DNA from: a virus
Virus record (IMG/VR): IMGVR_UViG_3300043773_002546
Span: 133,310 to 197,309 of that record
DNA length: 64,000 bases
Direction: 5' to 3' (one strand)
The notes beneath the pieces were generated by a model. That model was not told the DNA's origin, made no database searches, and was given only the letters and a program-made list of their open reading frames with translations. Shown here in pieces: positions 7,563 to 52,204 of the stretch; position 1 is the stretch's first letter, and each line of letters starts with the position of its first letter. Position numbers and translations under genes: made by a program.

Positions 7563-7919
7563 GTGAGTCTGCGCAAATTTCACAGCGAAATGGGCGGCGC
7601 CCAGCACGGCGGTGCCCGGCTGAGCTGGCCCGGCACGCCCGAGGGTTTTCCGGTCATTAACCGATCGGAGCACGCGGACCTCAAGCAGGAAGAGACCGAA
7701 AACCTCGACCTGCGGATGGATTACAAGTCCAAAATGTTCGAGCTGTGGGACGCGGCGCAGAAGGCAGAATTCGACGACATAAATGATAAGATAGTCAACG
7801 GTTGGTACCTGTTGCAGAAGCGCAGCGACAACTGGGACGCAGAAAACAAACATTATCGCGTATGGCTGGAGTGGTGCCAGATTTACGGCATGATTCCGCC
7901 TTCGAGGGCGCAACGATGA
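7563..7919 (+). CDS. Hypothetical protein
   Basis: GTG start with SD AAGGAGG; 118 aa, aromatic-rich C-terminus. Confidence 0.65.
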   Translation: MSLRKFHSEMGGAQHGGARLSWPGTPEGFPVINRSEHADLKQEETENLDLRMDYKSKMFELWDAAQKAEFDDINDKIVNGWYLLQKRSDNWDAENKHYRVWLEWCQIYGMIPPSRAQR

Positions 7920-8842
7920 GCACAAAACAAGCGGGCATCGGTGATTTTCTGTTTCCCGGAGTTTTCGGCCCGGATAACCATCCGGCCATGCAAGCCGCCG
8001 CCGAAGCACGAGAAAAGCTTAAGCAGCAGACAGAAAGCGCCCTGACAAGCCACTACGGCCAGAACATGCGTCAAATGCTCGGCTACGGCCTGGCGGGCGG
8101 CGCTGGCGCCACGGCGCTGTACCATGCCTTGCGCGCCCTGAGAAAGCCCAAGAAGAGCGAGACGAAGTACGACGAGATGAACTCTGGCGCTCCAGTGATG
8201 GCTAAGGAAGCCCTCAGCCTGGACGAAATGCTGGGAAAGCTCGTGCCTACGACCATGACCGGTCTGCCTAGTGGCGATGGTGCCGGTAACGGCGGCGCCC
8301 CGGCGGCGCCAGGACTTCCGGCGGACCCGCACATGTACCGTCCGACGTGGGCTGCACTGGCCGCGCTGGGCGCTGGCGGCTTAGGGCTCTATGGCGGCAA
8401 TAAGGCTGTCGGCGCGCTGGTCAACCGTAATAAGAAAAAAGATAGTCAGGCGGAAATCGACGAGGCCCGCAAAGCCTATTACGACGCCTTGCTGGGCGGC
8501 GATAAGAAAGCTGCTGCGCTAGACGACGTGTACGCTGCTTGGCAAGAGAAGCATGCCAACCCGCTGACGACTGTCCGCGACGCCTTTAACTCGACCGCCG
8601 ATTTCTTTGGTAGGACAGTTCCTCAAAGCGCGCACGCCCTGGCGCTGCTTGGCGCTTTGGGCGGCGGGGCGTACAGCGCCAAAAAGATGTACGACTGGAC
8701 CAAGTCCCGCAGCGAGGGCGAGAATCTCCGCAAAGCCCAGGCATCTAAGGCGCGGATGAAGGGCTTGCCAACGACGTGGGTGGATCCTGAAGAGCTGACG
8801 CGGATTAAAGAACTCGCGGCGCAAGCTGACAATGAGCAGTAA
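7916..8842 (+). CDS. Glycine-zipper, Cys-free protein with K-x-A-delimited segments (candidate ejection protein)
   Basis: ATG 7916 overlaps the upstream stop (ATGA); begins MSTKQAG; three Gly-rich hydrophobic helices, each segment preceded by KQA, KEA or KKAA/EKHA. Confidence 0.6.
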   Translation: MSTKQAGIGDFLFPGVFGPDNHPAMQAAAEAREKLKQQTESALTSHYGQNMRQMLGYGLAGGAGATALYHALRALRKPKKSETKYDEMNSGAPVMAKEALSLDEMLGKLVPTTMTGLPSGDGAGNGGAPAAPGLPADPHMYRPTWAALAALGAGGLGLYGGNKAVGALVNRNKKKDSQAEIDEARKAYYDALLGGDKKAAALDDVYAAWQEKHANPLTTVRDAFNSTADFFGRTVPQSAHALALLGALGGGAYSAKKMYDWTKSRSEGENLRKAQASKARMKGLPTTWVDPEELTRIKELAAQADNEQ

Positions 8843-8844
8843 CA

Positions 8845-11800
8845 ATGCCAGATCCGATCAATCTAGCGCCCGCTCAGCCTCCGCAGCGCGCATTCGGCGA
8901 CGTTAACGCACTGCGCAATAATATCTTTGAGCGGTCGTTACAACACGCCTCGACGCTCGAGCCTATCAAGAATGACCTGTACACGCTCCAGCTGAGCGAC
9001 GTGCAGTACAAGGGCCCGGAGCGCTACACGAAGGCCGACCAGAAGAAAGCCGTGCTCACTCGCGGCTCGTTGGCCCGCAAGCTTGTGGGCACCTGGAACC
9101 TCGTTGACAACAAGACCGGCCAGCAGGTTGCCCAGCGTCAGCAGACGATCGCTAGCGTGCCATACCTGACCGACAGCGGCACGTTTGTGAACAAGGGCGT
9201 GGAGTACACCCTGGCGCACCAGATGCGGCTGCGGCCCGGCGTGTTCACCCGCGAGAAAGACAACGGCGAGCTAGAGGCGCATGTTAACGTGCTGCCCGGC
9301 AAGGGCCGCATGCACCGGTACTTCCTCGACCCGAAGACGGGCGTGATGAAGATCAACATTGGCCAAGCGCAGATTCCGCTTATGCCGCTCTTAAAAACGC
9401 TGGGCGTTAGCGAGGGCGATATTCGCAAGTCGTGGGGTAACGAGCTGACGGCCGTGAACATGCAGCAGGGCGACGCGGGCACGCTCGACAAGCTTTATCA
9501 GCGCCTGGTGTACAAGCAAGAGCCTGGCAGCGACGCCTTGGCCAAGCAGAAGGCCATCGCCGCTGAGTTCGCCAAGATTGAGCTGGACCCCGAGGTTACC
9601 AAGCGGACTCTCGGCCAGCCCTACACCCGCATGACGCCCGAGGTCATTCTGGCGACGACAAAAAAGCTCATTGCGCTAAACCGCAAGGAAACCGACCCGG
9701 ACGATCGCGATTCGCTGGCTTACCAGTCGGTCGTTGGCCCCGAGGACCTGCTCTCGGAGCGCTTTACCAAGGACAAGGCCACGCTGCGTCAGCTGCTCTG
9801 GAAAGCCACGGCCAAGAAAAGCCTCGACCATATTCCTACGGGCGTGTTCAACAAAGCGCTCAACGCCGCGCTGATCGGCTCCGGGTTGGGCAGCTCACTC
9901 GAGGAGATTAACCCCGCAGAGATCTTCGACCATCAGACCCGCGTGACGCGACTTGGCGAGGGCGGCATCGGCTCGCTCGACGCCGTGCCCCAGGAATCCC
10001 GCAGCGTGCAGCCAAGCCACTTGGGTTTTGTGGATTTTCTGCGGACTCCCGAGTCTGGCAAAGTCGGCGTCGACATGCGTTTTAGCCGCGGCGCCATGAA
10101 GGGCAGAGACGGCAAGATTTACACGCCAGTAGTGAACATGCAAACCGGCGCTACGGAGTACAAGACGCCCCAAGAACTGGCGGATACGCCGTTGGCTTTT
10201 CCTGGCGAAGAGAAGAGCAAGCTCCCGATGGTTGCGGCGCTGGTGGGCGGCAAGATGAAGTACGTCCCCCGTGAAGAAGCGCAGTTCTCGCTGCCGCACA
10301 TGGACAACTCTTTTTCGGCGCTCTCGAATATGGTCCCCATGAAGAGCATGATGAAGGGACACCGAGTGATCATGGGCAGCCGCATGTTCACGCAGGCACT
10401 GCCGCTGGTGGACGCCGAGGCGCCGCTGGTGCAGTCCGCCCGGGCCGACAACCCCGGTGAAAGCCACGAGGACGAGATGGGCGGCAAACTCGGCGCCGTC
10501 CGTGCCGACGTTCACGGCCAGGTGGTCTCTGTCTCGTCTGATGAGATCGTCGTTCGCGACCGTGACGGCAATAAGAAAAGCATCGAACTCTACAACGACA
10601 TGCCGTTTAACCGGAAGACTTTCTGGACGCAGAAGCCCACGGTTCAACCCGGCGATACGATCAAGCCCGGCCAGCTGCTCGCGCATTCCAACTTCACTGA
10701 TAAGCAAGGAACAGCGGCGCTGGGCAAGAATCTCCGTGTGGCGTATGTGCCCTTCCGCGGCAAGAACTACGAAGACGCCGTGGTCATCAGTGAGTCAGCA
10801 GCCAAGCGCCTCACGAGCGAGCACATGTACCAGCACGAGGCCGAATGGGACGACCAGACCCACGTCGGCAAGAAGGCGTTTCTGTCTTTGTTTCCGGGCG
10901 AGTACGACAAGAAGGCGCTCGCCAACTTCGACGACAAGGGCGCCATCCAGAAGGGCACGGTCGTGAACTATGGCGACCCGCTTGTGCTCCAGGCCAAGGC
11001 GAAAGAGACAACTTACGGCAAGGTTCATCGCGGCCGCGCCGGAAACTTCACCAACGAGACACTCACCTGGGAGCACCACACGCCGGGCGTCGTGACCGAC
11101 GTCGAACACACCGACAAGGGCGTCAGCGTTGTAGTCAAAAGCCAGGCGCAGATGGAGGTCGGCGACAAGCTCACCGGTCGCTTCGGCGACAAGGGCGTTG
11201 TGGCCGACGTGATTCCGGACCACCAGATGCCCCAGGACAAAGACGGCAATCCGTACGAGGTCCTCGTCTCGCCGCTGGGCCTAATCTCCCGCGTGAACCC
11301 CTCGCAGGTCATCGAAGCCGCGCTGGGCAAAGTCGCTGCGAAGACCGGCCAGCCCTTCAAGCTCAAGGACTTCGATGACGAGAACGACCTGATTGAGATG
11401 GCGCAGCGGGAGCTGGCTAAGCACGGGTTGAGCGATACCGAGGACCTCACCGACCCGGAGACCGGGCGAAAGATCAAAGGCGTGCTCACCGGCAGCCGCT
11501 TCTTTATGAAGCTCCATCACACGGCCGAGGGCAAAGGGCAGGGCCGCGCGATGGGCAGCTATACCGCCGAGGGCACTCCGGCCAAGGGCGGCAGTGAAGG
11601 CGCCAAGCGCGTCGGCATGCTCGACCTGGGCGCGCTTTTGTCCCACGGCGCCGGAAAGGTCATCCGCGACGCCAAAATGGTCCGCGGCCAGGCTAACCCC
11701 GAGTACTGGTCGCAGTTCATGGCCGGGTATACCCCGCCGCTGCCAAAAGTCCCGCACGTCTACGAGAAGTTTGTCGGGCAGCTCAAAGCTTCTGGCATTA

Positions 11801-13218
11801 ACGCTGTCCGCAGCGGGACGCGCACGAACATCATGGCGTTAACCGACAAGGACGTCGAGCAACTGGCCGGAGACCGCGAGATCACCAGCTCCGACACGGT
11901 CGACTGGAAGGGCAAGCTCAAGCCGATTAAGGGCGGACTGTTTGACGAGACGCTCACCGGCGGCCACATGGGCAACCGCTGGAGCAAGATTACGCTTCAC
12001 GAACCGATGCCCAACCCGGTCATGGAAGAGCCCATCCGCCGCACCCTGGGCCTGACCGAGAAAAAGTTTCGCGCCGTGCTGTCCGGGACTGACACGCTGC
12101 GCGACAAGACCGGCCCGCAGGCAATCGCCGAGGCCCTTGGTGCGATTAGCTTGCCCAAGGCAATCGAGCAGTGCCGCGAGGACATCAAGTCGGGCCGCAA
12201 GACCCTTCGCGACGCCGCAGTGCGCCGCTTGGGGTACTTAAAGTCCGCCGAGGCCGCGGGCGTGCATCCCAAAGACTGGATGCTCACTAAGATGCCGGTT
12301 TTGCCGCCGATGTTTCGCCCCGTCTCGACGATGGGCGCCAAAAAGCTGCCCTTGGTAGCCGACGCAAATTACCTTTACAAAGAGCTCCTCGACAGCAACA
12401 ACGCGCTCAAAGACGCTTCCGGCGCGTTGGCCGAGTACAGCGACGAGCGGCTAGGACTTTACGATGCCATGAAAGGCGTGACCGGGCTGGGCAGTCCCAC
12501 GCAGCCGAAGAATCAGGAACGGCAGGTAAAGGGCTTCCTGCAGCACGTTTTTGGCTCAAGCCCGAAGTACGGCACCGTACAGCGCAAGCTGCTTTCTACG
12601 ACCGTGGACCTGGTCGGCCGCGCGGTAATTACTCCTAACCCGGACTTGGACATGGATGAGGTCGCTTTGCCCGAGGACAAAGCCTGGGAGGTGTACAAGC
12701 CCTTCGTTGTCCGCGGGCTAGTCAGGCGCGGAATGCCGCGCATGCAGGCCCTGGACGCCGTCGAGCAGCGCAACAAGGCCGCCGCTGCTGAACTTCAGGG
12801 CCAGATGAGTTCTCGGCCAATCGTTATTAACCGTGCGCCCGTGCTGCATCGATACGGTATGATGGCGTTTTATCCAAAGCTCACCAAAAACAAGGTTATG
12901 GAGGTCAATCCGGTCATTACCAAGGGCTTTAACGCCGACTTCGACGGAGACGCGATGCAGTATCACGTTCCCAGCACAGAGGACGCCGCCAAGGAAGCCG
13001 TGGAAAAAATGCTGCCCAGCAAAAACTTGTTCGCGGCCGCCAGCTTCAAAGCGCACTACGTGCCGCAGGCGGATTTCCAGACAGGCGTTTACTTGGCATC
13101 TAGCCGGATTGACAAGAAAGCCAAGCCGCGTATTTTTCGTACCAAGCAGGAAGCCCTACACGCCTATCGCCGCGGCGAGATCGACGTCGACACCCCGGTA
13201 AATATTGTCGAGAGTTAA
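8845..13218 (+). CDS. Phage multisubunit RNA polymerase: complete beta fused to the N-terminal, catalytic half of beta'
   Basis: RpoB motifs SGTFVNKGVE..QMRLRPGV, TPESGKVG, MGSRMFTQALPL, GKNYEDAVVIS, GDKLTGRFGDKGVV, MKLHH; then RpoC motifs GGLFDE, PVLPPMFRP, NRAPVLHR and intact NADFDGD (12931-12951). Confidence 0.95.
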   Translation: MPDPINLAPAQPPQRAFGDVNALRNNIFERSLQHASTLEPIKNDLYTLQLSDVQYKGPERYTKADQKKAVLTRGSLARKLVGTWNLVDNKTGQQVAQRQQTIASVPYLTDSGTFVNKGVEYTLAHQMRLRPGVFTREKDNGELEAHVNVLPGKGRMHRYFLDPKTGVMKINIGQAQIPLMPLLKTLGVSEGDIRKSWGNELTAVNMQQGDAGTLDKLYQRLVYKQEPGSDALAKQKAIAAEFAKIELDPEVTKRTLGQPYTRMTPEVILATTKKLIALNRKETDPDDRDSLAYQSVVGPEDLLSERFTKDKATLRQLLWKATAKKSLDHIPTGVFNKALNAALIGSGLGSSLEEINPAEIFDHQTRVTRLGEGGIGSLDAVPQESRSVQPSHLGFVDFLRTPESGKVGVDMRFSRGAMKGRDGKIYTPVVNMQTGATEYKTPQELADTPLAFPGEEKSKLPMVAALVGGKMKYVPREEAQFSLPHMDNSFSALSNMVPMKSMMKGHRVIMGSRMFTQALPLVDAEAPLVQSARADNPGESHEDEMGGKLGAVRADVHGQVVSVSSDEIVVRDRDGNKKSIELYNDMPFNRKTFWTQKPTVQPGDTIKPGQLLAHSNFTDKQGTAALGKNLRVAYVPFRGKNYEDAVVISESAAKRLTSEHMYQHEAEWDDQTHVGKKAFLSLFPGEYDKKALANFDDKGAIQKGTVVNYGDPLVLQAKAKETTYGKVHRGRAGNFTNETLTWEHHTPGVVTDVEHTDKGVSVVVKSQAQMEVGDKLTGRFGDKGVVADVIPDHQMPQDKDGNPYEVLVSPLGLISRVNPSQVIEAALGKVAAKTGQPFKLKDFDDENDLIEMAQRELAKHGLSDTEDLTDPETGRKIKGVLTGSRFFMKLHHTAEGKGQGRAMGSYTAEGTPAKGGSEGAKRVGMLDLGALLSHGAGKVIRDAKMVRGQANPEYWSQFMAGYTPPLPKVPHVYEKFVGQLKASGINAVRSGTRTNIMALTDKDVEQLAGDREITSSDTVDWKGKLKPIKGGLFDETLTGGHMGNRWSKITLHEPMPNPVMEEPIRRTLGLTEKKFRAVLSGTDTLRDKTGPQAIAEALGAISLPKAIEQCREDIKSGRKTLRDAAVRRLGYLKSAEAAGVHPKDWMLTKMPVLPPMFRPVSTMGAKKLPLVADANYLYKELLDSNNALKDASGALAEYSDERLGLYDAMKGVTGLGSPTQPKNQERQVKGFLQHVFGSSPKYGTVQRKLLSTTVDLVGRAVITPNPDLDMDEVALPEDKAWEVYKPFVVRGLVRRGMPRMQALDAVEQRNKAAAAELQGQMSSRPIVINRAPVLHRYGMMAFYPKLTKNKVMEVNPVITKGFNADFDGDAMQYHVPSTEDAAKEAVEKMLPSKNLFAAASFKAHYVPQADFQTGVYLASSRIDKKAKPRIFRTKQEALHAYRRGEIDVDTPVNIVES

Positions 13219-13232
13219 ACACGGAGGTTTAC

Positions 13233-13964
13233 ATGTTCACGGTTAATCCCGAACTGATTTCGCTCGCCCGCATGCGGTTCGAAAAGTCGGCCGTTGTGCC
13301 CCCGGGCGGCGGCGACCCGGCCATGATGGGCGGCGGCGCACCTCCGATGGACCCGGCGGCTATGGGCATGCAACAGCCTGCCGCCCCGGTTGACCCGGCT
13401 CAGGCGGCTATGGGCGCCGCTCCTCCTGCTGACCCCTCTCAGGATCCAACCGGCGCGATGGCCGCCGCAGCCCCGCCAGCACCGGCCCCGATGCCTCCGG
13501 CGACGCCCACCGCCGCCGCTCCTGGCCAGCAGAAGCTCAAACCCGAGCAGATGATGCAGATGCTCGACTACCGGCTTTACAACATGCAGCAGCAACTCAC
13601 GGCGATCATGAACGCCATGGGCGTGCAGGTCCCGCCGGAATCGCTCGTGCTACCCCCGGGCACGACCGGCGCGCCCCCGGCTGAGACGGCGCTGCCCGGC
13701 GGCCCGATGGCGCCGCCCCCGCCGCAGCAGGACCCGAACGCCCCGAGCGGCCCGCAACCTCCGGGCGGCCCGCTCCCTCCCGGCGGCCCGATGGATCCCA
13801 GCCAGATGCCCATGGACCCTAACGCGCCGAAGCAGGCCAACTGGTGGGATGTGGGGCGCCCCGTGGACAAGGCCGTGCACAGCAACCCCGACGCCCCGAC
13901 GGACCTGCAGACCAAAGCGGCTGCAATCGCCGCGCTGTGTCGGAGCATGACGCGTGCGCGTTAA
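13233..13964 (+). CDS. Pro/Met/Gln-rich, probably disordered protein
   Basis: SD CACGGAGGT; low complexity around a short helical core (EQMMQMLDYRLYNMQQQL); EKSA and KQA motifs near the ends. Confidence 0.65.
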   Translation: MFTVNPELISLARMRFEKSAVVPPGGGDPAMMGGGAPPMDPAAMGMQQPAAPVDPAQAAMGAAPPADPSQDPTGAMAAAAPPAPAPMPPATPTAAAPGQQKLKPEQMMQMLDYRLYNMQQQLTAIMNAMGVQVPPESLVLPPGTTGAPPAETALPGGPMAPPPPQQDPNAPSGPQPPGGPLPPGGPMDPSQMPMDPNAPKQANWWDVGRPVDKAVHSNPDAPTDLQTKAAAIAALCRSMTRAR

Positions 13965-14202
13965 ATTAACTCACAACCTGCAGCCTCACGAACAGTCGGC
14001 TCAGTCGATCATTCTGTATGACGATCTGGGAAATCCGATTTTCGTGGCCATGCAGCTTGATGAGTCGATTATCTACGCCGACGCCGGAGAGCCTGATTTT
14101 CACGCTATGCTTCGCGCCTTGGGCGTGAACAAAACAGTCATCGTCAACGAGATCACGCCAAAGCCCGTCAAGAACATGCTGTGGACGCCGGGAAATGCTT
14201 AA
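13954..14202 (+). CDS. Small hypothetical protein between the RNAP genes
   Basis: 82 aa, GTG start, overlaps both neighbours. Confidence 0.55.
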   Translation: MRVKLTHNLQPHEQSAQSIILYDDLGNPIFVAMQLDESIIYADAGEPDFHAMLRALGVNKTVIVNEITPKPVKNMLWTPGNA

Positions 14203-16099
14203 AACCACGCTTGGTCAAGTACTTTTAAACGAAACGCTTCCGGAAGATCTCCGGGACTACAATCGCGTTTTGACTAAAAAAGACATGGCCAAGCTGGCTA
14301 CGGACCTAGCCGAGAAGCACCCGGACAAGTACCGCCAGGTCATGAAGCGGCTGCACGACATCGGCCATGAAGCGGCTTACACCACCAATGGCCTTTCCTT
14401 CGGTCTCAAAGATATCAAACCGACGTTAGCAGCCCGCACCGCCCAGTTGCGCGTACACAAAGCGCTGCAGGGAATTCTCGCCGATAAAGGCATCGACGAA
14501 AAAGCCCGCACTTTGAAGATCCTTAAGCTGGCCTCCGAGGCGCAAAAGTCTCTCGTCGAGGACGTCTACAAAGAGGCCGAGAGCGCCGACAACCCGCTGG
14601 CGCATCAGGTTCGCGGCGTTTCGCGCGGCAACAAGTACAGTTTGAATTCTCTGATCGGCGCCGACATGCAGTACGTCGACCATAAGAACGACCCGATTCC
14701 GATTCCTGTAATGCGTGGCTACGGCCAAGGCCTGCGCCCTGTGGAGTACTTCGCCGGGGCCTTCGGCACCCGCAAGGGCGTCATGGACCTGAAGACAGCA
14801 ACTGCCGATGCCGGTTTCTTCGGCAAGCAGCTGGCGCAGATGACGCACAGACTTTTAGTGACCGACGACGACGACAAGGACGAAGAGCGCAACGCCACCG
14901 CCCACGACCGCGGCTTTCCAAGCGACGTGGACGACCCAGATAACGAGGGCGCGTTCTTGGCGCGGCCCGTCGGCCCATACAAGCGCAACACTCTTTTGAC
15001 GCCGAAGATTCTCCGCGAGCTCAAGGAACAGGGCGTCAAAGACATCCTGGTACGCAGCCCAACCGTGGGCGGCCCAGAGGACGGCGGCGTGTACGCTAGG
15101 GACGTTGGCTACAGGGAAAAGGGCAAGCTCCCGCCCGTAGGCGACTACGTGGGCATCGCCGCGGCTCAGGCACTTTCGGAACCGGTGACGCAGGCGCAGA
15201 TTAGCTCCAAACATTCCGGCGGCGTGGGCGGCGCAGGTTCAATCTCTGGCTTCAAGGCTATTAACGCTTTGGCGCAGGTCCCCAAAAAATACCCCGGCGG
15301 CGCTGCGCACGCCCAGATTGACGGCACGGTTCAAGAGGTGCGCCCCGCGCCCCAGGGCGGCTTTTACGTGCAGATCGACGGGCAGGAGCACTATGTCCCC
15401 ACAGACCGCGAGGTCTCGGTCAAAAAGGGCCAGACCCTCGAGGCAGGAGACACGATTTCCAGCGGCATGCCCAACCCCGGCGAAATCGTCCGCCACAAGG
15501 GCATCGGCGAAGGGCGCAGGTATTTCGTTCAGGCCATGCGTCAAGTGCTGCAAAACTCTGGCGTGTCGCCACATCGCCGTAACATCGAACTTCTCTCGCG
15601 CGGATTGGTAAATCATGTTCGCATGACCGACGAGCACGGCGACTATGCGCCGGACGACATCGTGCCCTACTCGATGATCGAACGGAGTTGGACGCCGCGG
15701 TCGGGCAGCGTGACCGGCGCGCCGAAAAGCCTTTCTGGGCATTATCTAGAGCGCCCCGTACTGCACTACTCAGTTGGTACAAAAATCGGTAAGGGCGTGC
15801 TTGCGAACCTGGAAAAATACGGCATCAACAATGTCGAGGCCCACAAAGAGCCGCCGCCGTTTCAGCCGGAAATGGTTCGCGGCATGGCAAATATCTCTAA
15901 CGACCCCGACTGGATGACCCGCATGCTCGGCTCGTACCAGCAGAAGGGCCTGTTAAACAGCGTACACCGCGGCCTATCCAGCGATACATCCGGATCGAGT
16001 TTCGTTCCCGCGCTGGCCCGCGGCGAAACATTCGGTGTTTCCGGCGCCACGAGCGGATGGCAGCCGCAGAACGATTTAGGTAGGATGAAAGGGCCCTAA
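14195..16099 (+). CDS. Phage multisubunit RNA polymerase: beta' C-terminal half (bridge helix, trigger loop)
   Basis: TTLGQVLLNETLP, GLRPVEYFAGAFGTRKGVMDLKTATADAGF (bridge helix), GIAAAQALSEPVTQAQISSKHSGG (trigger loop with His). Confidence 0.93.
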   Translation: MLKTTLGQVLLNETLPEDLRDYNRVLTKKDMAKLATDLAEKHPDKYRQVMKRLHDIGHEAAYTTNGLSFGLKDIKPTLAARTAQLRVHKALQGILADKGIDEKARTLKILKLASEAQKSLVEDVYKEAESADNPLAHQVRGVSRGNKYSLNSLIGADMQYVDHKNDPIPIPVMRGYGQGLRPVEYFAGAFGTRKGVMDLKTATADAGFFGKQLAQMTHRLLVTDDDDKDEERNATAHDRGFPSDVDDPDNEGAFLARPVGPYKRNTLLTPKILRELKEQGVKDILVRSPTVGGPEDGGVYARDVGYREKGKLPPVGDYVGIAAAQALSEPVTQAQISSKHSGGVGGAGSISGFKAINALAQVPKKYPGGAAHAQIDGTVQEVRPAPQGGFYVQIDGQEHYVPTDREVSVKKGQTLEAGDTISSGMPNPGEIVRHKGIGEGRRYFVQAMRQVLQNSGVSPHRRNIELLSRGLVNHVRMTDEHGDYAPDDIVPYSMIERSWTPRSGSVTGAPKSLSGHYLERPVLHYSVGTKIGKGVLANLEKYGINNVEAHKEPPPFQPEMVRGMANISNDPDWMTRMLGSYQQKGLLNSVHRGLSSDTSGSSFVPALARGETFGVSGATSGWQPQNDLGRMKGP

Positions 16100-22893: not shown

Positions 22894-23844
22894 ATGGACG
22901 CCGAACGTTACGCCGATATCTTTGCGCGCGCTGCCACAACCGGCAACCGCGCCGAGCTGGTCAAGGTCGCCAGCGCGTTCACCAAAACCGCCTTGGGGAT
23001 GGAAGATCTCAAAGGCGCATTGGGTAACCCAGCAGTTCAGAACGCCCTGATTGGCGCAGGCGTCGGCGGCTTGTTCGGCGCCGCGACCGGCAAGAAGAAG
23101 CTGCGTAGTGCTTTGGGCTACGGTCTCTTGGGCGGCCTGGGCGGTTTGGGCGTCAGCGCCCTGACCGGCAAAGGGAAACCCGAAGTTCCAGCAGGGCTGT
23201 CGTCCGCGGAACGCGGCGCGATCGCTACCGGCACAGGCAACCCCGTCGCCGCTACCGCTACCGGCGCTGGCATCGGCGGCGCGGCTGGATATGCCGCGGG
23301 TGGCGCCGTAGGCGATCAGATGGCCAAGCGTGAGAACCAGCTCAGCCGCTTTATGGACGCCGGAGGCAAAGACAAGCACCGCTTTGCCAAACCGCTGCAG
23401 CGCCTCGAAAAGTTTGGCCCAGGCGGCGAGTCGGCGGTCGCCGATTTTAAGCTCGACTCGCGTACGGCACCGTTTCAAAACAATCGTTTCCGTCTAGCGG
23501 GCCTAGACACCGGCAACGTCGGAGATGAAGCAGGCCGCGCAATCGACACAGTCTCGGACGTAATGAAAAAAGACCGGCTGTCTTACCTCCCTTGGCGCCG
23601 CACCAAACAGCTCGACGCCCTGACCAAGGTCATTCAGGCTGAGGGAAACGCCGCCACGCGCATCAATCCAAAAGCGCTGGCCAGCGCCTTGGACGAGCTG
23701 CCCGCAAAGGCCACGAGTCGGATGCCGCGATACGGCCGCGGAGCCGGTGCGCTGCTGGGCATTCTGCTTGGCGGCATAGGCGGCGCCCGGGCTAATCGAT
23801 CGGCTGTACTTAATGCGCAGCAGCAGGCTGCAGGAGCCCAATAA
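22894..23844 (+). CDS. Glycine-zipper, Cys-free protein (candidate ejection/membrane-channel protein)
   Basis: GAGVGGLFGAATG, GYGLLGGLGGLGVSAL, GAGIGGAAGYAAGG, GAGALLGILLGGIGG; KVA and KTA near the N-terminus; no Cys. Confidence 0.6.
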   Translation: MDAERYADIFARAATTGNRAELVKVASAFTKTALGMEDLKGALGNPAVQNALIGAGVGGLFGAATGKKKLRSALGYGLLGGLGGLGVSALTGKGKPEVPAGLSSAERGAIATGTGNPVAATATGAGIGGAAGYAAGGAVGDQMAKRENQLSRFMDAGGKDKHRFAKPLQRLEKFGPGGESAVADFKLDSRTAPFQNNRFRLAGLDTGNVGDEAGRAIDTVSDVMKKDRLSYLPWRRTKQLDALTKVIQAEGNAATRINPKALASALDELPAKATSRMPRYGRGAGALLGILLGGIGGARANRSAVLNAQQQAAGAQ

Positions 23845-27742: not shown

Positions 27743-27781
27743 ACCAACCCTTAATCACCACGGAACATGGAGGTTCCTTCA

Positions 27782-28708
27782 ATGCCCACTCAGCAAGAAA
27801 TCCAGCTGCTCAATGAAACGCTCTTCGAGCAGCTCGACACCCCCGGCATGCAGAAGCAGGCCGTGGACGCAGTTAACGACTTCACGCGCACCAAGATGCG
27901 TGAAGACGGGTTCTATCGGCGGATCATGCCGCCGCTCACCATCACCAATGACGAGCTCGACCGCCAGGTCGACACGGACAAGCCGGTGAAGGTGGTCGAC
28001 AAGGAACCCGATTCCCCGGCGGCTGTGTCGCTCCCGTTCGCGACGCTCCCGATTAACTTCTACATCCGTGGCCCGCGCTACCGCGTCATGTTTGACCGGA
28101 TCGTGTCGCCCCGCGCTGTGAAGGACGTCGACGAGCTGCGTACGTACGTGATCGACATCCGTCAGGTTCTGTCGGACAACATGATCAAGGACATGCTTGC
28201 CGAGGAAGACTCCAAGTTCATCCAGGCCTTCAACGCCGTCCTCCCGACTCCGGGCGTGGCGAACGTTGCTTCGGGCGTGGTGCAGTACGAGGAGATCCAC
28301 GGCGGCATCACCCGTGAGACGCTGGTCGACGCGCTGAAGGTTATGCCGCGTACGCCGTCGCACTTTGAGGTCGAGACTTGCCTCGTGAATAACATCACGA
28401 TCAAGGAACTCCTCAAGTTCGGCCGCGACGAAATGGGCGGCGACTTCTCGCAGGACATCGTCAAGAACGGCTGGGCCGAGACGAACTTCCTGAACTGCCG
28501 CTGGATCGTCACGATCAAGCGCGATCTGGTTCCGGACGACTCGCTGTTCATGTTCGCGTCGCCGAAGTTCATCGGCAAGAACTACGAGCTCGAGCCCACC
28601 ACGATGTACATCCGTCGTGAGGCTTACATGCTCGAGTACTTTGCCTACAACACGCAGGGCGGCTCGTTCGGTCACACGAACGGTCTGGCCCGCGTGGACT
28701 TCAAGTGA
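27782..28708 (+). CDS. Major capsid protein (HK97-like)
   Basis: GGAGG favours ATG 27782; 308 aa; strongly biased GC3 codons; follows protease, scaffold and decoration genes; followed by a strong hairpin. Confidence 0.75.
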   Translation: MPTQQEIQLLNETLFEQLDTPGMQKQAVDAVNDFTRTKMREDGFYRRIMPPLTITNDELDRQVDTDKPVKVVDKEPDSPAAVSLPFATLPINFYIRGPRYRVMFDRIVSPRAVKDVDELRTYVIDIRQVLSDNMIKDMLAEEDSKFIQAFNAVLPTPGVANVASGVVQYEEIHGGITRETLVDALKVMPRTPSHFEVETCLVNNITIKELLKFGRDEMGGDFSQDIVKNGWAETNFLNCRWIVTIKRDLVPDDSLFMFASPKFIGKNYELEPTTMYIRREAYMLEYFAYNTQGGSFGHTNGLARVDFK

Positions 28709-41970: not shown

Positions 41971-44900
41971 ATGGAAGGTTTTCGACCGCCACAATACGCG
42001 CCGGGCCAGAGCAAAGAGCTCATGAACGACCCCATGTCGCTCATGGGAATGATGTTTGGCGTCCCCTTGGCCCAGGGGTTGGCCGGGCCGGGGCACTTCA
42101 TTCCGCACCTCCAGCCCGCGCAAAACCTGGCCGACCAGTACATGTCTGCCCGGTACCAGCGCGACCAAATGAGCTCTGTAAGCGACGCCAGCGCGCGGGG
42201 CAACGCCGCCGTTGCCAGCCGCCTGCTGGGCCTGCGGTCGCTGGTGACCGACGCTCCGGCCACGCCGATGAACCGCGAGCAGGCGAACGTTATCGCCGGA
42301 ATCGCTAATAACCCCATCGCTAAAGCCATGGCCGGGCAAGTCATGGGCCCGGAAAATCTCGAGGCGGTGATGTTCGGCCAGCGGGGCGACCCGTCGGCGC
42401 TAGCCAGCTCGACAAACCGCATGGGCTTCTTCCGCCGCGACACAACGGGCGGCCGTCGGATGAGCGGCGAAGGCATGCAGGAGTTTTCGCAGAACGTCTA
42501 CGAAAACCTCTACGGCAAGGACGCTGACGTCGCCCAGATGCACGGCTTCATGGCCAGTCAGAGCGGCCAGATCATGGAGGGGCTTTTTGAGCGCGGCGCG
42601 CTGCCACAGGCTATGGGCGATATGTCCGCTGCCGACCGCGTGCGGATGCTTAGCAAGTCTCAGCGCGACGACAAGACCGTCACCCGGCTTGCCGAGCAGT
42701 TTGGCCACCGGGACATGATGGCCCGCGACGAGAAGTACCAGCAGGCGACAGAAGAAGAGCGCAAGCTCATGCTCGCCGACAAAACGGACTCTTACAAAAG
42801 CAAGATTCAAACAACCTTTGAGGAGGCCGACCGCTTCACTCAGGGCGACCCGCGGGCCAAGAGCGCCCAGGAGATCGAGCAGACCGAGGGCTACGGCACG
42901 GCGGCCCGTAACGTCGACAGCACCCGCGTCGCCAAGGTCGCCAAGGATTACGCCGGGGCCCTAGACGCAGTTCGCGAGATCTTCGGCGACAGCGGACATG
43001 GCGACGCCCCAATCGCTGCTTTGATGCAAGCCCTCGACCAGTTCTCCGGCGGTTCCGTGCAGCAGGTAGGCACGGAAAAGGTCGAGAAGACTATGCGCGA
43101 GATGCGCGTCGCAGCCCAGGCCGCCGGAGTCGGCGCAGAGCACCTGGGCGAGTTAACGGCCCAAATGAACGCGCAGGGGCAGGCAATGGGGCTCTCGGCG
43201 CCGGTGACTATGCAGGCAACGCTGCAAACCGTGCAGGCAGAACGCGCCATGCGCGAGTCGGGCTCATTTTCTAACCCCAAACTTTTTGGCTCAGTTAACG
43301 AAGCTCGCGGGCAAGAGATCATGCGCGCCCGGATGCTCCGCGGCGAAGCCTCCGGCGCAGCCAAGGCCATGGGCGCGCTAACACGGGCCTACGAAGAGAA
43401 CTCCGAGCTTTACAAAGGCACGGAACTAGAGGCCGCGGTCAAGGCCGCGCAGGACCCCAACAGCGGCTACAAGTACACCTACGACGGCAAGGAGGTCAAC
43501 CTGGCCGAGATGGTCGGCCGGGGCGGACCCCAGGCCCTCTCGCAGCTGGCGTCCAAGTCCGGCATGGATCAGGAGACTTTTAGTTCTTACTTCCTTGATC
43601 CCGGCTCGCAGGAATACGCCCAGAAAAATACGGGATTAGCTTTCGCCGGGCAGAAGTACCAGCTGGCCCGCGATATCACCCGCGGCTTCAGCGGTAACGT
43701 CGCTAGCCGTTTCCGCCGTGACGCCGTGCAAGCACTAAAACCAAACGACATGACCGCCGCTCAGTTTGAGCGGTACAACAACGATATATCGCGCGAGTTT
43801 AGCGGCGCCATGGGCCGCGTAATTGTCGAAGAGACCGGCGGCATGTCTCAGTCCGACCGCGCTGCGCATATGGAAAAGCGCCATACGGACATTCTCGCCG
43901 AGAGCTTTCAAAAACGTGGCGACGACGAAAAGACGGCGCGGCGCAAAGCAGAAACTTATTCTGCGGCGGCTTTCGGTGATTCGGAGGCCAAGCGGCGTCA
44001 AACGTTCGGGGCCATGTCCGCTAGGGCGAACACAGTCTCCAAAAACCTAACCGGCGAAGAGATCGTTGTTAACAGCCAAGTGAACAACGAGAAGGTCGCC
44101 GAGAAGATGCAGGAAGTTCGCGTTGAGGACGCCAATCGCGCCGAGCGTTCCAAGCAGGCCGAGATGGGCATGGAGTCTAACGTCGCCCAACGAGTTGGCG
44201 ACACGCTCGACGCCCTGGGCAAGGACCCAAGCATGTCAGGCGCCGAGGCCGCTCGGCGGATCGCGGCGCCGGTGAACGTGCAGGAGATGCGCAACAAATA
44301 CGGCCCCGAGCTGGCTTCCGGCCTGGCGGCCGCTGAAGGAATGCTCAGTTCCGGCAACGCGGAGACCAAGGCCAACGCTGAGAAGATCATGGCGGGGATC
44401 TACGACGGCACGAACGCCAACGCCGTCACCGGCGGCGCAGCTGCCCTAGCCGACCAGGTTTTCGGTGCTGCTGACGCGCCTGCCTCCAAAGAAATGCGAA
44501 ACCTGATGAGCCGCGCGGCCTCCGGCAATAAGGAGGCTATGCAGCAGGCGCAAGAGCGGATCGCCGCGCAAAACGGCACGAGCGAAGAAGGCCAGGCCAA
44601 AACAAAGCAAGCCATGGACATGCTTGGCGCCTTGGGCAAGGCCAAGGATGTCGATCTTTACGGCGCTGGCTACCGGCCGCCGACCGCCGCGCAGGTCAAC
44701 GCCGAGCAGGCGGCCGAGCAAGACAAACTTCGTACCGTTGGGGCCGATACCGTGCCCGCGTCCCAGGTCGACGAAGAAACAATTAATAATCGCGCTGACG
44801 GCCTCGTGCCGTCCTCGCAGACAATCTCGCCGTCGGATATCGCCGCCGTGCAGGCCGTGGGCGGCGACAACGGCCCGATGGCCGACGCGATTGGCGTCGG

Positions 44901-45837
44901 GCAGCGCCTGGCCACAGCCACCGCCGTGGCCGCGACTATGGGCGCGCCGCGTCTGGCACGAGCCGCCGCAGCCGCGGAAGCAGCTGCAGCAGGCGGCGGG
45001 GTCGCGCAGAGCGCGGTTGATGCCGCAGGGCTCATTAACGGCGCTGCCGGTGCGGCGGACACAGCGGTAAGCGCCACGAATTTTGTTGCCGGGACCCAAG
45101 CAGCCCAAAAGCTCGCCCCTACCGCCGCCGCCAAAGCGGGCGCGTTGATGAGCAAAGCTGCTCCATTTGCGGCGGCGGCTGGCAAGGTCGCGACGGTCGC
45201 AGCGCCGGTACTAGGCGGGCTCACTGGCGCGCTGCAGGCGGACGATGTCAATCGCGGCACGCTCGAGGCCACAGCGTTGGGCGCTTTGACCGGCGACGCC
45301 AAGACAGGCAGCGCAATCAGCGGTTTTGTCGGCATCGAGGAGGGCTCGACGACCGACAAGGCTCTGGGTGTTGCGGGCGCCGCCGCGAACATGGCGATGC
45401 TCGGCGCCGCAGTCGGAAGCTTTGTTCCGGGCGTGGGCACGGCAATCGGCGCTGGCATCGGCGGCCTGATTGGCGCCGGTACAGAAATGTACAAGTGGGC
45501 GACAGAAGACGAGTCTGTGCACGCCAAAACAACTAAGCCGGAAGAAACCGTCGACGCTGTTGCGGCAAGCAACCCGCTGCCTGAGCACGACGCGCAAAAA
45601 TCCGTGCAGCAAGTCGCTAACGCGCAGAGCGCCATCAAACGGACCGTCGAGTCCACGCCGACCGTCCAGGCCAGCGGCGGTCGAGGCAGCAGCGGCGGGG
45701 GCGAGATGAACATCAACGGCACACTGGCGCTCCGCGGCCTTCAAGAGGCACTGATCTCCGCCAGCGCCCAGGTGCCGATGGATTCGCCGGACGGCGGCGC
45801 CCCGGTGTTTAACGGCAACGTAGCGGGAGCGTTCTAA
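41971..45837 (+). CDS. Tape measure protein
   Basis: 1288 aa, Ala/Gly/Met-rich helical, no Cys, C-terminal glycine zipper, after chaperone genes; about 190 nm of tail by the 0.15 nm/residue rule of thumb. Confidence 0.8.
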   Translation: MEGFRPPQYAPGQSKELMNDPMSLMGMMFGVPLAQGLAGPGHFIPHLQPAQNLADQYMSARYQRDQMSSVSDASARGNAAVASRLLGLRSLVTDAPATPMNREQANVIAGIANNPIAKAMAGQVMGPENLEAVMFGQRGDPSALASSTNRMGFFRRDTTGGRRMSGEGMQEFSQNVYENLYGKDADVAQMHGFMASQSGQIMEGLFERGALPQAMGDMSAADRVRMLSKSQRDDKTVTRLAEQFGHRDMMARDEKYQQATEEERKLMLADKTDSYKSKIQTTFEEADRFTQGDPRAKSAQEIEQTEGYGTAARNVDSTRVAKVAKDYAGALDAVREIFGDSGHGDAPIAALMQALDQFSGGSVQQVGTEKVEKTMREMRVAAQAAGVGAEHLGELTAQMNAQGQAMGLSAPVTMQATLQTVQAERAMRESGSFSNPKLFGSVNEARGQEIMRARMLRGEASGAAKAMGALTRAYEENSELYKGTELEAAVKAAQDPNSGYKYTYDGKEVNLAEMVGRGGPQALSQLASKSGMDQETFSSYFLDPGSQEYAQKNTGLAFAGQKYQLARDITRGFSGNVASRFRRDAVQALKPNDMTAAQFERYNNDISREFSGAMGRVIVEETGGMSQSDRAAHMEKRHTDILAESFQKRGDDEKTARRKAETYSAAAFGDSEAKRRQTFGAMSARANTVSKNLTGEEIVVNSQVNNEKVAEKMQEVRVEDANRAERSKQAEMGMESNVAQRVGDTLDALGKDPSMSGAEAARRIAAPVNVQEMRNKYGPELASGLAAAEGMLSSGNAETKANAEKIMAGIYDGTNANAVTGGAAALADQVFGAADAPASKEMRNLMSRAASGNKEAMQQAQERIAAQNGTSEEGQAKTKQAMDMLGALGKAKDVDLYGAGYRPPTAAQVNAEQAAEQDKLRTVGADTVPASQVDEETINNRADGLVPSSQTISPSDIAAVQAVGGDNGPMADAIGVGQRLATATAVAATMGAPRLARAAAAAEAAAAGGGVAQSAVDAAGLINGAAGAADTAVSATNFVAGTQAAQKLAPTAAAKAGALMSKAAPFAAAAGKVATVAAPVLGGLTGALQADDVNRGTLEATALGALTGDAKTGSAISGFVGIEEGSTTDKALGVAGAAANMAMLGAAVGSFVPGVGTAIGAGIGGLIGAGTEMYKWATEDESVHAKTTKPEETVDAVAASNPLPEHDAQKSVQQVANAQSAIKRTVESTPTVQASGGRGSSGGGEMNINGTLALRGLQEALISASAQVPMDSPDGGAPVFNGNVAGAF

Positions 45838-48789: not shown

Positions 48790-49605
48790 ATGCCCAGCAA
48801 CACCAGCAAACCATCGCCGTCAATCCTTGATGACGTGCCCATGCCTTTTTCGCAGCCGCCGAAGATTCACGGCGTTGGCGATGATTTTCTACCCGCGTAC
48901 CAGACCTGGCAGACGCAACGCACGCCGCAGAACAACACAGCGCTGTTAAAAACCTTGCAGCCGGTCTTGGATACGGCCGTCACCAGTTACGCGGGCGGCA
49001 ACCAGAGCCCGACAATCAAGTCGCGGGCCAAACTCATGGCGCTAAAAGCCATGGAGAGCTTTGACCCTAACCGCGGCAACGTCCGCACCCATCTGCTCAG
49101 CCAGCTCCAGAGCCTGCGGAGGCTTTCGGCGCAAGAGCAGAACATCATCCACCTCCCTGAGCAGGTCGGCCTGGACTTCCAAAACCTCAACGAGAGCGAG
49201 AACGAGCTGCGGGACAGCATGGGGCGCGACCCGACTGACGAGGAGCTGTCTAATCACACGAACCTTTCCGTACGTCGAATCCGCAAGATCCGCAAGTTCC
49301 ACCAGCCGATCTCCGAAGGCACAGTCGTCGGCCAAGAGAGCGACGAGAACGACCCGACGGACATCGCTAGCCAAGTGCCCGGCGGGGGCCATCGCGCAGC
49401 GGACGCCTGGATGAACTTTGTCTACGACGATCTGGGCGCTACTGACAAGTTGATCATGGATATGACCTTGGGCCGCAACGGCAAACGCCGCACGCCGACT
49501 CAGGAGATCGCCCGCAAACTGGGGATTACTCCCGGCGCCGTGAGCCAGCGTGCGGCCAAGATTCAAACGATGCTCGACAAGCGGTACACCCAAGGCGGAT
49601 TCTAG
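48790..49605 (+). CDS. Sigma-70-family (group 3-like) sigma factor
   Basis: Region 2 (ALKAMESFDPNRG), region 3 (MGRDPTDEELS) and region 4 HTH (TQEIARKLGITPGAVSQ). Confidence 0.85.
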   Translation: MPSNTSKPSPSILDDVPMPFSQPPKIHGVGDDFLPAYQTWQTQRTPQNNTALLKTLQPVLDTAVTSYAGGNQSPTIKSRAKLMALKAMESFDPNRGNVRTHLLSQLQSLRRLSAQEQNIIHLPEQVGLDFQNLNESENELRDSMGRDPTDEELSNHTNLSVRRIRKIRKFHQPISEGTVVGQESDENDPTDIASQVPGGGHRAADAWMNFVYDDLGATDKLIMDMTLGRNGKRRTPTQEIARKLGITPGAVSQRAAKIQTMLDKRYTQGGF

Positions 49606-50560: not shown

Positions 50561-52204
50561 ATGGCGCTTGAAGTTACCAATCTTGATGAGCTGAACACGG
50601 ACACGGTCAACGCCCTGTTCGCCACGTTCACCCAGTACATGCAAGAGCGGCACCCCGAGGTCGAGCTGACTCGCGGCGTGTTTCACGACCTTGTGCTGTA
50701 CTTTAACTCGGTGCTCAACGCCACCGTGCGGGAGAACATCGCCCGGGTCCGGCAGAGCAACAGCTTGCTGCAGATCAATGCCAACCCCGCGCTGGCCGAC
50801 AACACGCTGGTGGACCAGGTGCTCTCGAACTACAACCTGGTGAGAGACACCGGCAGCGCCGCGGTGGGCGACGCCACGATCGTCCTAAACCTGCCGGTGA
50901 GCACGCGAATCTCTGCGGGAATCACCTTTACCGCCGACGACGTGAAGTTCCGCCCCACGGGCGAGTTCATTGCCCTTCCGCCGGGCTCCGTTCCAACGCA
51001 GGCTAACGAGCGGGTGATGATCGCCGTGGGCGACGGCACCTACGCCGTGAACATCCTCGTGGCCGCGACAACCGCGGGACTGGCGGGCAACATTCGTCGC
51101 GGCACGTCGCTAATTCCAGACAGCGTGCCAAACAACATGCTCTCGGCTTTTGCCGCTGTGGACTTCGTCAGCGGCCGCGCGCCACTAGCGAACGCTGACT
51201 ACGTCGCCCGGCTGGCTGACGCCCTGGCGAGCAAGACTGTGGGCGGGCGGCAGAGCTACGCCGCATCGATCCGCGGCCAGGCTGCTTTTAAGAACATTCC
51301 CCACCTGTCAATTCTGGGCTGCGGCGACCCCGAGCAGATGCGCGACCAGCACAGCTTGTTTCCCGTCTCCGGCGGCGGCAAGGTGGACATTTACGTCCAA
51401 AGCCACAGCAACGCCCAGCAGCGAGAGCACTTGTTGTCGGCCAGTTACGTCGGCCCCGGGGCCACGGGCACGATCTGGCAGATTGTGCTGGGCCGCGAGA
51501 TTGCGGGCGGGATCTACGAGATCGCTCGCGTAGCGCAGCCTTTGAACCTTACCAGCACCGGTTACGCCCTGACCCAAGACATCCGGGGCGTGGACTTGAC
51601 CGATTTGGACTTTGCCCCGGACATTGTTTCCTACGAGGAGGGCGCTTACAGCCGCTACCAGACGGCCGTAATTCGTTTCGAGGACACCGACACTGCGCCG
51701 ACCGGCCTGACTCCCAACGTCAGCCGGGCGCAGTATGCGGTGACAACCGTAGGGTTGCCGCTAATTAACGACGTGCAGGATTACCTCAGCAGCCGCGACG
51801 TGCGCAGCCGATCGGCGGACGTGCTCGTGAAGGCCGCCGTGCCTTGCTTCACGAAGATTTCATTCTCGATCCGCAAAGAGGCAAACACCACCGAAATGGA
51901 TCTTGCGCCAATCAAGCAAGCCATCGTCGACGCAGTGGCCAAGGTCGGCTTTTCCGGACAGCTCCACGCCTCGATCATCAGCGGCGCGATTCACCAGCGC
52001 CTCACCGGCCGCCAGGCCGTGGGCCCGATCGACATGTTCGGCCGCATCCGCCGCCCGGACGGTCATACGGTCTATCTGCGCAATAACACGCTCTTGGAGA
52101 TTCCCCACGACCCCGCGCGAATGATCACCGGACGGACCACGGCGTTTCTGGTGGGCCTGGACGACGTCTCCATTTCCACCGTAACCGCGGGCTTTGCCGA
52201 CTAG
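50561..52204 (+). CDS. Baseplate J-like wedge protein
   Basis: 547 aa; AVGDATIV, AATTAGLAGNI, SGRAPLANADYVARL, GGGKVDIYV patterns of the Baseplate_J family. Confidence 0.8.
   Translation: MALEVTNLDELNTDTVNALFATFTQYMQERHPEVELTRGVFHDLVLYFNSVLNATVRENIARVRQSNSLLQINANPALADNTLVDQVLSNYNLVRDTGSAAVGDATIVLNLPVSTRISAGITFTADDVKFRPTGEFIALPPGSVPTQANERVMIAVGDGTYAVNILVAATTAGLAGNIRRGTSLIPDSVPNNMLSAFAAVDFVSGRAPLANADYVARLADALASKTVGGRQSYAASIRGQAAFKNIPHLSILGCGDPEQMRDQHSLFPVSGGGKVDIYVQSHSNAQQREHLLSASYVGPGATGTIWQIVLGREIAGGIYEIARVAQPLNLTSTGYALTQDIRGVDLTDLDFAPDIVSYEEGAYSRYQTAVIRFEDTDTAPTGLTPNVSRAQYAVTTVGLPLINDVQDYLSSRDVRSRSADVLVKAAVPCFTKISFSIRKEANTTEMDLAPIKQAIVDAVAKVGFSGQLHASIISGAIHQRLTGRQAVGPIDMFGRIRRPDGHTVYLRNNTLLEIPHDPARMITGRTTAFLVGLDDVSISTVTAGFAD

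Follow-up and report, generated by a model that had tools for sequence, protein, structure and literature searches.

The last 64 kb of the virus record IMGVR_UViG_3300043773_002546 encode a two-chain RNA polymerase (RNAP) of bacterial type with almost no cysteine and with neither of the two beta' zinc sites. This stretch (hereafter the window; 64,000 nucleotides, with coordinates counted from its first letter unless given as genome positions) ends a 197,309-bp single-contig record with a CheckV completeness of 96%. The locus raises the question why thiols and zinc were removed from such an enzyme, and whether the answer lies in the phage particle: the original prediction, made from the sequence alone, took the polymerase for a likely virion-packaged enzyme. 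From the analysis presented here the enzyme is probably a packaged and injected sigma-holoenzyme, which would have lost its thiols and thiolate-bound zinc to suit unfolding, an oxidizing route and unaided refolding.

The two chains and the catalytic loop are encoded as follows (aa, amino acids).

8845-13218, + strand: fusion of beta with the N-terminal half of beta', 1457 aa, identified by Pfam and by a PDB sequence search
12931-12951, + strand: catalytic NADFDGD Mg loop, residue 1363 of the fusion
14195-16099, + strand: beta'-C with bridge helix, trigger loop and jaw, 634 aa, no Cys, Pfam Rpb1_5

In the 1457-aa open reading frame (ORF), Rpb2 domains 2, 3 and 6 are followed by Rpb1 domains 1 and 2 (Rpb2_6, E 1e-52; Rpb1_2, E 3.7e-25; Rpb2_3 and Rpb1_1 were matched too). 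The PDB search aligned residues ~70-1000 with bacterial beta (E 1e-67) and residues 1062-1454 with bacterial beta' (E 1e-49), and the chain stops about 90 residues past NADFDGD. An AlphaFold model of the 634-aa beta'-C had a predicted local distance difference test score (pLDDT) of 83, and Foldseek matched it over ~630 columns to beta' of Thermus, Mycobacterium and E. coli (E 1e-27, template-modeling score 0.67-0.71). The general fold and the domain order are those of bacterial beta and beta'; the catalytic loop agrees as well, and so does the putative reliance on a sigma-70-family factor. The enzyme differs from bacterial RNAP in lacking both zinc sites and a detectable alpha subunit, in the fusion of beta to the N-terminal part of beta', in the split of beta', and in changed rifampicin-pocket hotspots.

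Over 54 sequences down to 45% identity, 61 columns are invariant, and the DFDGD, bridge-helix and trigger-loop regions are conserved. The statement that the catalytic residues are intact is correct as regards the Mg-binding DFDGD and the GDK..GR.G.KG motif of the beta barrel (retained at 11161-11220), but not as regards the position eight residues beyond that motif. This position, which we take to be a conserved beta Lys, is D/E in the window clade and A/L in Arash and D69, two cultured relatives described below.

The genome holds a single beta/beta' set. The alpha models PF01000 and PF01193 matched nothing in the six frames of the 96%-complete genome (controls 14/14), a search that a very divergent alpha could escape; the window polymerase may possibly recruit host alpha. 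Rifampicin-pocket cluster I, at ~9870-9960 (beta residues ~345-372), has diverged at classical sites of resistance (Q513S, D516E and S531T in E. coli hotspot numbering) and retains H526. The diverged pocket predicts a rifampicin-insensitive enzyme and, together with the single RNAP set, is an indirect pointer to early transcription without host RNAP.

Zinc sites and cysteines of the polymerase

To our knowledge, bacterial RNA polymerases conserve both beta' zinc sites, and assembly has been described as dependent on the second. The residue numbering and function of these sites are given after E. coli RNAP. The positions that matter here are the following.

11932-11997, + strand: junction replacing the beta' zinc ribbon, residues 1030-1051, GGLFDETLTGGHMGNRWSKITL, from an alignment with Salmonella beta'
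12172-12174, + strand: sole Cys codon (C1110); of 120 relatives, 116 have Ala here and one has Cys
14858-14908, + strand: region matching the site-2 ligand C814, D/K/E-rich, with an 8-residue insertion and no Cys, poorly conserved in the clade
15053-15109, + strand: remnant of zinc site 2, residues 287-305, RSPTVGGPEDGGVYARDVG, with G, Y and D in place of C888, C895 and C898

The proposed deletion of the four-Cys ribbon was borne out by the alignment. From GGLFD to KITL the window protein has 22 residues, compared with ~57 in Salmonella beta', and the segment with C70, C72, C85 and C88 is missing; nucleotide 11932 opens the first codon of GGLFDETLTGGHMGNRWSKITL. A pattern search found the 22-residue junction in 105 of 120 relatives of the fusion, and Arash and D69 show an identical gap. 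Since the ribbon is missing in Arash, in D69 and in the window clade alike, it was lost before these lineages diverged.

The second site is gone as well, in agreement with the original prediction: besides the three replaced ligands, C814 has no counterpart, and nucleotide 15109 closes the last codon of RSPTVGGPEDGGVYARDVG. Clusters at 50% identity supplied 150 representatives, 46-57% identical to the query, and none of these has Cys at the positions of C888, C895 and C898. The triplet is G/Y/D in 119 of them, with the Asp invariant, and the clade consensus over the remnant reads VRSP.VGG.PDGGVYARDVG. The AlphaFold model gave pLDDT values of 85-94 over beta'-C residues 231-310, which include the remnant. 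Each beta'-C chain of Arash and D69 has four Cys and no more, aligned with C814, C888, C895 and C898. Judged from these alignments, only the freshwater clade of the window has lost site 2, and this came after the loss of the ribbon.

The cysteine counts that had been given were confirmed: C1110 in the 1457-aa chain and none in the 634-aa chain, or one in 2091 aa, where Salmonella beta has 7 and beta' 15. With the genome-wide ORF frequency of 1.46%, 30.5 Cys would be expected in a protein of this length (P(<=1) 1.8e-12); the window frequency of 0.93% gives 19.5 (P(<=1) 6.8e-8), and that of Salmonella beta plus beta' gives 16.5 (P(<=1) 1.2e-6). Nor did any set of homologs have an ordinary Cys content. 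Among 120 fusion homologs, 108 have no Cys, 4 have one, and 8 carry a 344-aa insertion that holds almost all their Cys. Close homologs of beta'-C lack Cys in 116 of 120 cases, the other four carrying inteins, and 135 of the 150 cluster representatives have none anywhere in the aligned part. Because most relatives have Ala where the window protein has C1110, the ancestral enzyme was Cys-free, and on the sequences compared C1110 is a recent private change.

Intein-like insertions were seen after RTPE at beta residue 403/404 (relatives P0277, P0305 and P0329) and after SSKH at approximately residue 340 of beta'-C (relatives P0005, P0013, P0067 and P0072), with more insertion points near residues 199/210. 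They have Cys at the start, N at the end and Ser at +1, so that the spliced chains stay Cys-free. Many beta'-C representatives of the 50% clusters (P0125-P0272, e.g. P0127, P0135 and P0160) extend into C-terminal tails of 100 to >1000 aa that are Cys-poor, P/A/T/Q/G-rich and apparently disordered. The window protein has no such tail, and a 795-aa ORF downstream of its beta'-C was rejected as a counterpart, as it is not homologous.

The polymerase belongs to a very large uncultured freshwater clade that is common in lakes. At E <= 1e-10, homologs of the fusion form >1700 clusters and those of beta'-C >1300 clusters at 90% identity, many of them on contigs of 180-235 kb. The window DNA itself occurs in lake or freshwater metagenomes of at least 10 studies, and a nucleotide search of the region against isolated phages gave no match.

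Cultured relatives and known virion polymerases

Among isolates, full-length protein matches came only from one Salmonella phage, Arash, at 33% identity, and from the Vibrio phages D69, D148 and D181, at 31%; in the three Vibrio phages the RNAP homologs are unannotated. The hosts of these phages are Gram-negative, Arash being a sewage phage of Salmonella. Arash and D69 share with the window phage the fusion of beta to the N-terminal part of beta', the separate beta'-C, the ribbon deletion and the near absence of Cys (fusion plus beta'-C: 1+4 in Arash, 2+4 in D69, the four being the site-2 ligands). They differ in that site 2 is retained as the only four Cys of beta'-C, whereas the window clade has none.

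For Arash, alone among the cultured relatives, particle proteomics by liquid chromatography coupled to mass spectrometry (LC-MS) has been published. The fusion Gp206 gave the most spectra of any protein, 3516, with 128 unique peptides, and the beta'-C Gp216 gave 1210 spectra with 40 unique peptides (PMC10585845). Sigma factor Gp10 and helicase Gp217 were also detected in the particles (PMC10585845). Virion proteomics of a related isolate had been named as a check of packaging, and both RNAP subunits are present in Arash virions (PMC10585845). From the same data (PMC10585845) we computed peptide densities, as unique peptides per 100 aa:

Arash polymerase and associated proteins: Gp206 fusion 8.4; Gp216 beta'-C 6.6; Gp10 sigma 10.3; Gp217 helicase 8.1
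Arash structural proteins: portal 5.5; capsid protein 9.8
Other Arash enzymes: primase 0.2; uracil-DNA glycosylase (UDG) 0.7; ribonucleotide reductase (RNR) 1.4

By this measure RNAP, sigma and helicase group with bona fide particle proteins. Cysteine is absent from Gp10, Gp217 and Gp4 (1097 aa) of Arash, and Gp229 has 2 in 2548 aa.

Multisubunit virion enzymes are known from jumbo phages of the phiKZ/AR9 type (PMC7598289, PMC7824862). Like the window enzyme, they are two-barrel polymerases related to bacterial beta and beta' in which beta' is split after the catalytic barrel, and the virion set lacks a zinc ribbon that the non-virion paralog has. They are packaged and injected, as is probable for the window enzyme. 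They differ in having two sets of 4-5 chains each and no sigma, compared with one set, an uncut and fused beta, and a sigma factor in the window genome. Sequence similarity also places the window enzyme far nearer to bacterial RNAP (PDB beta, E 1e-67) than to the phiKZ-type PHROGs (1e-14 to 1e-28).

In the phiKZ record the non-virion RNAP has its ribbon, of the form CxC-x12-CxxC, in gp55, and gp74 carries the four Cys of site 2. The subunits annotated as head proteins (gp80, gp149, gp178 and gp180) have no ribbon-like motif, and gp80 retains the four site-2 Cys. This agrees with Iyer et al. 2021, who noted the ribbon in non-virion RNAPs (PMC7824862); the papers on the polymerase structures of phiKZ and AR9 are silent on zinc sites. 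If Arash RNAP is packaged, ribbon loss would have accompanied packaging at least twice. Taking the absence of both sites as a mark of packaging, as the original prediction did, nevertheless overstates the case, for Arash, D69 and the phiKZ virion RNAP all retain site 2.

The N4 virion RNAP is Cys-free as had been stated, gp50 having no Cys in 3500 aa; gp51 and gp52 have none either, compared with 1.1-1.4% in N4 replication proteins. Lokareddy et al. described Cys suppression in ejection proteins across 191 Schitoviridae and cite the idea that it reflects passage through the disulfide-making periplasm (PMC11445570). What the window phage has in common with these N4-like phages (gp50/gp71; PMC11445570) is Cys suppression, which in the latter is complete in the very large polymerase that is injected and in the proteins ejected with it. 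However, the N4-like enzyme is a single-subunit T7-like polymerase within a ~3500-aa protein of a podovirus, without homology to the two-barrel beta/beta' enzyme of the window.

Gene context and other cysteine-free proteins

The genome-wide Cys content is ~1.5%. Cys counts are 7 each for the portal and the sheath-like protein and 12 for the Gp222-like structural protein, and among the enzymes of the same genome the terminase has 11 and a DNA-polymerase-like ORF 15. As the portal, sheath-like and Gp222-like proteins keep their Cys, the purge is neither a proteome-wide nor a virion-wide trait. The other genes that bear on the polymerase are listed here.

48790-49605, + strand: sigma-70-family factor, 271 aa, no Cys, Pfam Sigma70_r3, homolog of the Arash virion sigma Gp10
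Genome 106484-108430: Snf2-type helicase (SNF2-rel_dom + Helicase_C), 648 aa, no Cys, homolog of Arash Gp217
13233-13964, + strand: P/A/M/Q/G-rich (63%) low-complexity protein between the two RNAP genes, 243 aa, no Pfam or PHROG match
7802-8842, + strand: glycine-zipper protein with three hydrophobic helices, up to 346 aa, no Cys, no family match
41971-45837, + strand: Ala/Gly-rich tail-module protein, 1288 aa, no Cys (P 7e-9), no family match
27767-28708, + strand: major capsid protein, 29% identical (E 3e-38) to Arash Gp226

The sigma factor scored 37.8 bits for Sigma70_r3, above the cut-off, and 22.8 bits for r4, just under the cut-off of 24.1 bits; no second sigma was detectable in the genome, whereas Arash has gp196 (3 Cys) in addition. 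Its homologs in five of five distant relatives (36-44% identity) have no Cys, and the sigma is Cys-free in 7/7 lineages examined. The sigma gene lies within the baseplate block, with a Baseplate_J-like gene (50561-52204) ~1 kb downstream, and the Arash genes gp10 to gp13 are arranged alike.

The Snf2-type helicase was found in one of five distant relatives, where it adjoins beta'-C in a 1002-aa Cys-free frame. It recalls the Swi2/Snf2 helicase that Iyer et al. linked to phiKZ-type RNAPs (PMC7824862).

Between the RNAP genes there is an 82-aa ORF besides the 243-aa ORF. An ORF of similar composition stands just upstream of beta'-C in 61 of 67 relatives (down to ~50% beta'-C identity) and is Cys-free in all 14 inspected; the product might serve the polymerase as a disordered partner or as an adaptor for packaging.

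The glycine-zipper gene stops 2 nt before the start codon of the RNAP fusion, and a second Cys-free glycine-zipper protein with hydrophobic helices is encoded at 22894-23844 (+). Both are candidate membrane-inserting ejection proteins. The gene of the 1288-aa protein, downstream of the sheath-like one, occupies a tape-measure-like position; the protein has no similarity to the Cys-free Arash Gp4 and was rejected as its relative. Two more large ORFs with zero Cys and no assigned function lie at genome 118602-122197.

In Arash the capsid and sheath genes lie downstream of the RNAP genes and a Cys-free sigma within the baseplate block, and the window genome has the same order, including the Gp222-like and Gp233-like genes. 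In Arash the portal and helicase genes adjoin the RNAP genes, whereas the window genome has them at distances of 56 and 34 kb. Twenty neighboring ORFs scanned against PHROG and Pfam were mostly blank, so that a head module could be placed only via homology to Arash. The claim that the RNAP genes sit inside the head module holds only roughly: they belong to a long co-oriented block of virion genes and precede the major capsid gene by ~12 kb, but lie 56 kb downstream of the portal. Nearly all ORFs >= 200 aa from ~21 kb to the genome end (197 kb) are on the + strand. Arash, unlike the window genome, has its early genes and virion genes on opposite strands.

Proposed packaging, its alternatives and their meaning

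The course of events that we consider probable can be laid out as follows. The only RNAP of the phage, a sigma-dependent enzyme of bacterial type with two chains and no alpha, would be made late, packed into the capsid with the Cys-free sigma, and delivered into the cell with the DNA, where it would start transcription without the host enzyme. Proteins leaving the capsid through the tail would travel unfolded and refold on arrival, and as extracellular life and part of the entry route are oxidizing, thiols and thiolate-bound zinc would be liabilities. In a first step the lineage would have deleted the beta' zinc ribbon, a state common to Arash, D69 and, independently, the phiKZ virion polymerase. 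In a second step the freshwater clade would have swapped the four site-2 ligands for a conserved non-thiol motif and purged all other Cys.

For the window phage we infer packaging, ejection and the selective cause alike. Virion packaging of its RNAP appears well supported, albeit indirectly: the part of the original prediction that called the enzyme likely virion-packaged gains from the clade-wide purge and from the subunits in Arash virions, and is tempered by the distance between the two phages. The RNAPs are 25-33% identical, which makes the support indirect, and the genomes have ~11 BLAST-detectable genes in common. Several other points weigh against packaging as the explanation. Among the 116 'virion' proteins listed for the Arash preparation were RNR, primase and ligase, and the authors allow for carry-over of abundant enzymes (PMC10585845). 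The phiKZ virion RNAP has 0.61% Cys compared with 1.16% in the non-virion enzyme, a depletion of only ~2-fold, and it keeps site 2; packaging thus does not require the purge and site-2 loss of the window enzyme, and the general rule that Cys-free means packaged is weakened. The Snf2 helicase, present in one of five distant relatives, had to be rejected as a universal member of the packaged kit. With nearly the whole genome on one strand, gene order gives no timing information. Finally, we know of no studied precedent for one RNAP being packaged and also serving the whole course of infection.

One alternative also has the enzyme packaged, but places the selection in oxygen acting on the free particle, or in unfolded threading through the tail and metal-free refolding, and not in the periplasmic disulfide machinery. 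Zinc sites cannot survive unfolding, and both have been removed and not merely shielded; the conserved replacement motif is predicted to fold without metal (pLDDT 85-94, as given above). The portal and sheath-like proteins, which stay outside the cell, keep their Cys, so particle oxidation alone is insufficient and transit or refolding is favored. On the other hand, the literature backs the periplasm idea in the case of N4-like phages (PMC11445570), and the known hosts of the relatives are Gram-negative. We regard this alternative as somewhat unlikely on balance, and with present data the periplasm, free-virion oxidation and metal-free refolding are not separable as causes of the Cys purge.

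The main rival, an enzyme that acts inside the cell and never enters the virion, is unlikely. It could have lost its zinc and thiols through zinc scarcity in oligotrophic lakes, oxidative or thiol-reactive stress within infected cells, or escape from a ribbon-targeting factor of a host or rival. The phage DNA does come from lake water (at least 10 metagenome studies), and ribbon loss would also take away the docking site of ribbon-dependent regulators. The carry-over allowed for by the Arash authors would fit an enzyme of this kind too. However, zinc economy covers the 8 ligand Cys and not all others in 2091 aa, nor does it cover a sigma that is Cys-free in 7/7 lineages. Terminase (11 Cys) and the DNA-polymerase-like ORF (15) of the same phage are normal, and Arash, a sewage phage of Salmonella, has the same near-purge. 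In addition, the peptide density of Arash RNAP, sigma and helicase is like that of structural proteins and unlike that of replication enzymes. Neutral drift in a degenerating or non-catalytic relic, to which the diverged rifampicin-pocket residues and the D/E at the presumed beta Lys might point, is very improbable for the only polymerase in the genome, given the conserved DFDGD, bridge-helix and trigger-loop regions, the 61 invariant columns over 54 sequences, the spread of the gene over >1300 clusters at 90% identity and contigs of ~200 kb, and an absence of Cys that is maintained and not random.

The packaged and injected sigma-holoenzyme is therefore the reading that we prefer. Its strongest form, a full sigma-dependent holoenzyme without zinc or Cys that is borne in the capsid, injected via a contractile tail and runs the whole infection independently of the host, is put forward tentatively, as possible but somewhat short of probable. 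Virion RNAPs and Cys suppression in ejected proteins are known already, and the Arash paper reports detection by MS only (PMC10585845). Our literature search found no packaged sigma-dependent phage polymerase beyond Arash, and no description of a zinc-free, Cys-free beta/beta' enzyme or of the polymerase of this clade.

If a capsid-borne zinc-free holoenzyme is confirmed, it would add a fourth kind of virion RNAP, evolved independently, and would prove from nature that the enzyme can dispense with both 'essential' beta' zinc sites. The clade, with its conserved G/Y/D motif at site 2, would offer a natural system for studying the purpose of the zinc sites and how a two-barrel polymerase folds without zinc and alpha. 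If the enzyme is injected, Cys suppression, documented so far for N4-like podoviruses, would extend to a cellular-type holoenzyme in myoviruses. It would then also serve as a sequence predictor of injected proteins, flagging the sigma factor, the Snf2 helicase, the glycine-zipper protein and the 1288-aa tail-module protein. As the clade is common in lakes, its strategy of host takeover matters for freshwater ecology.

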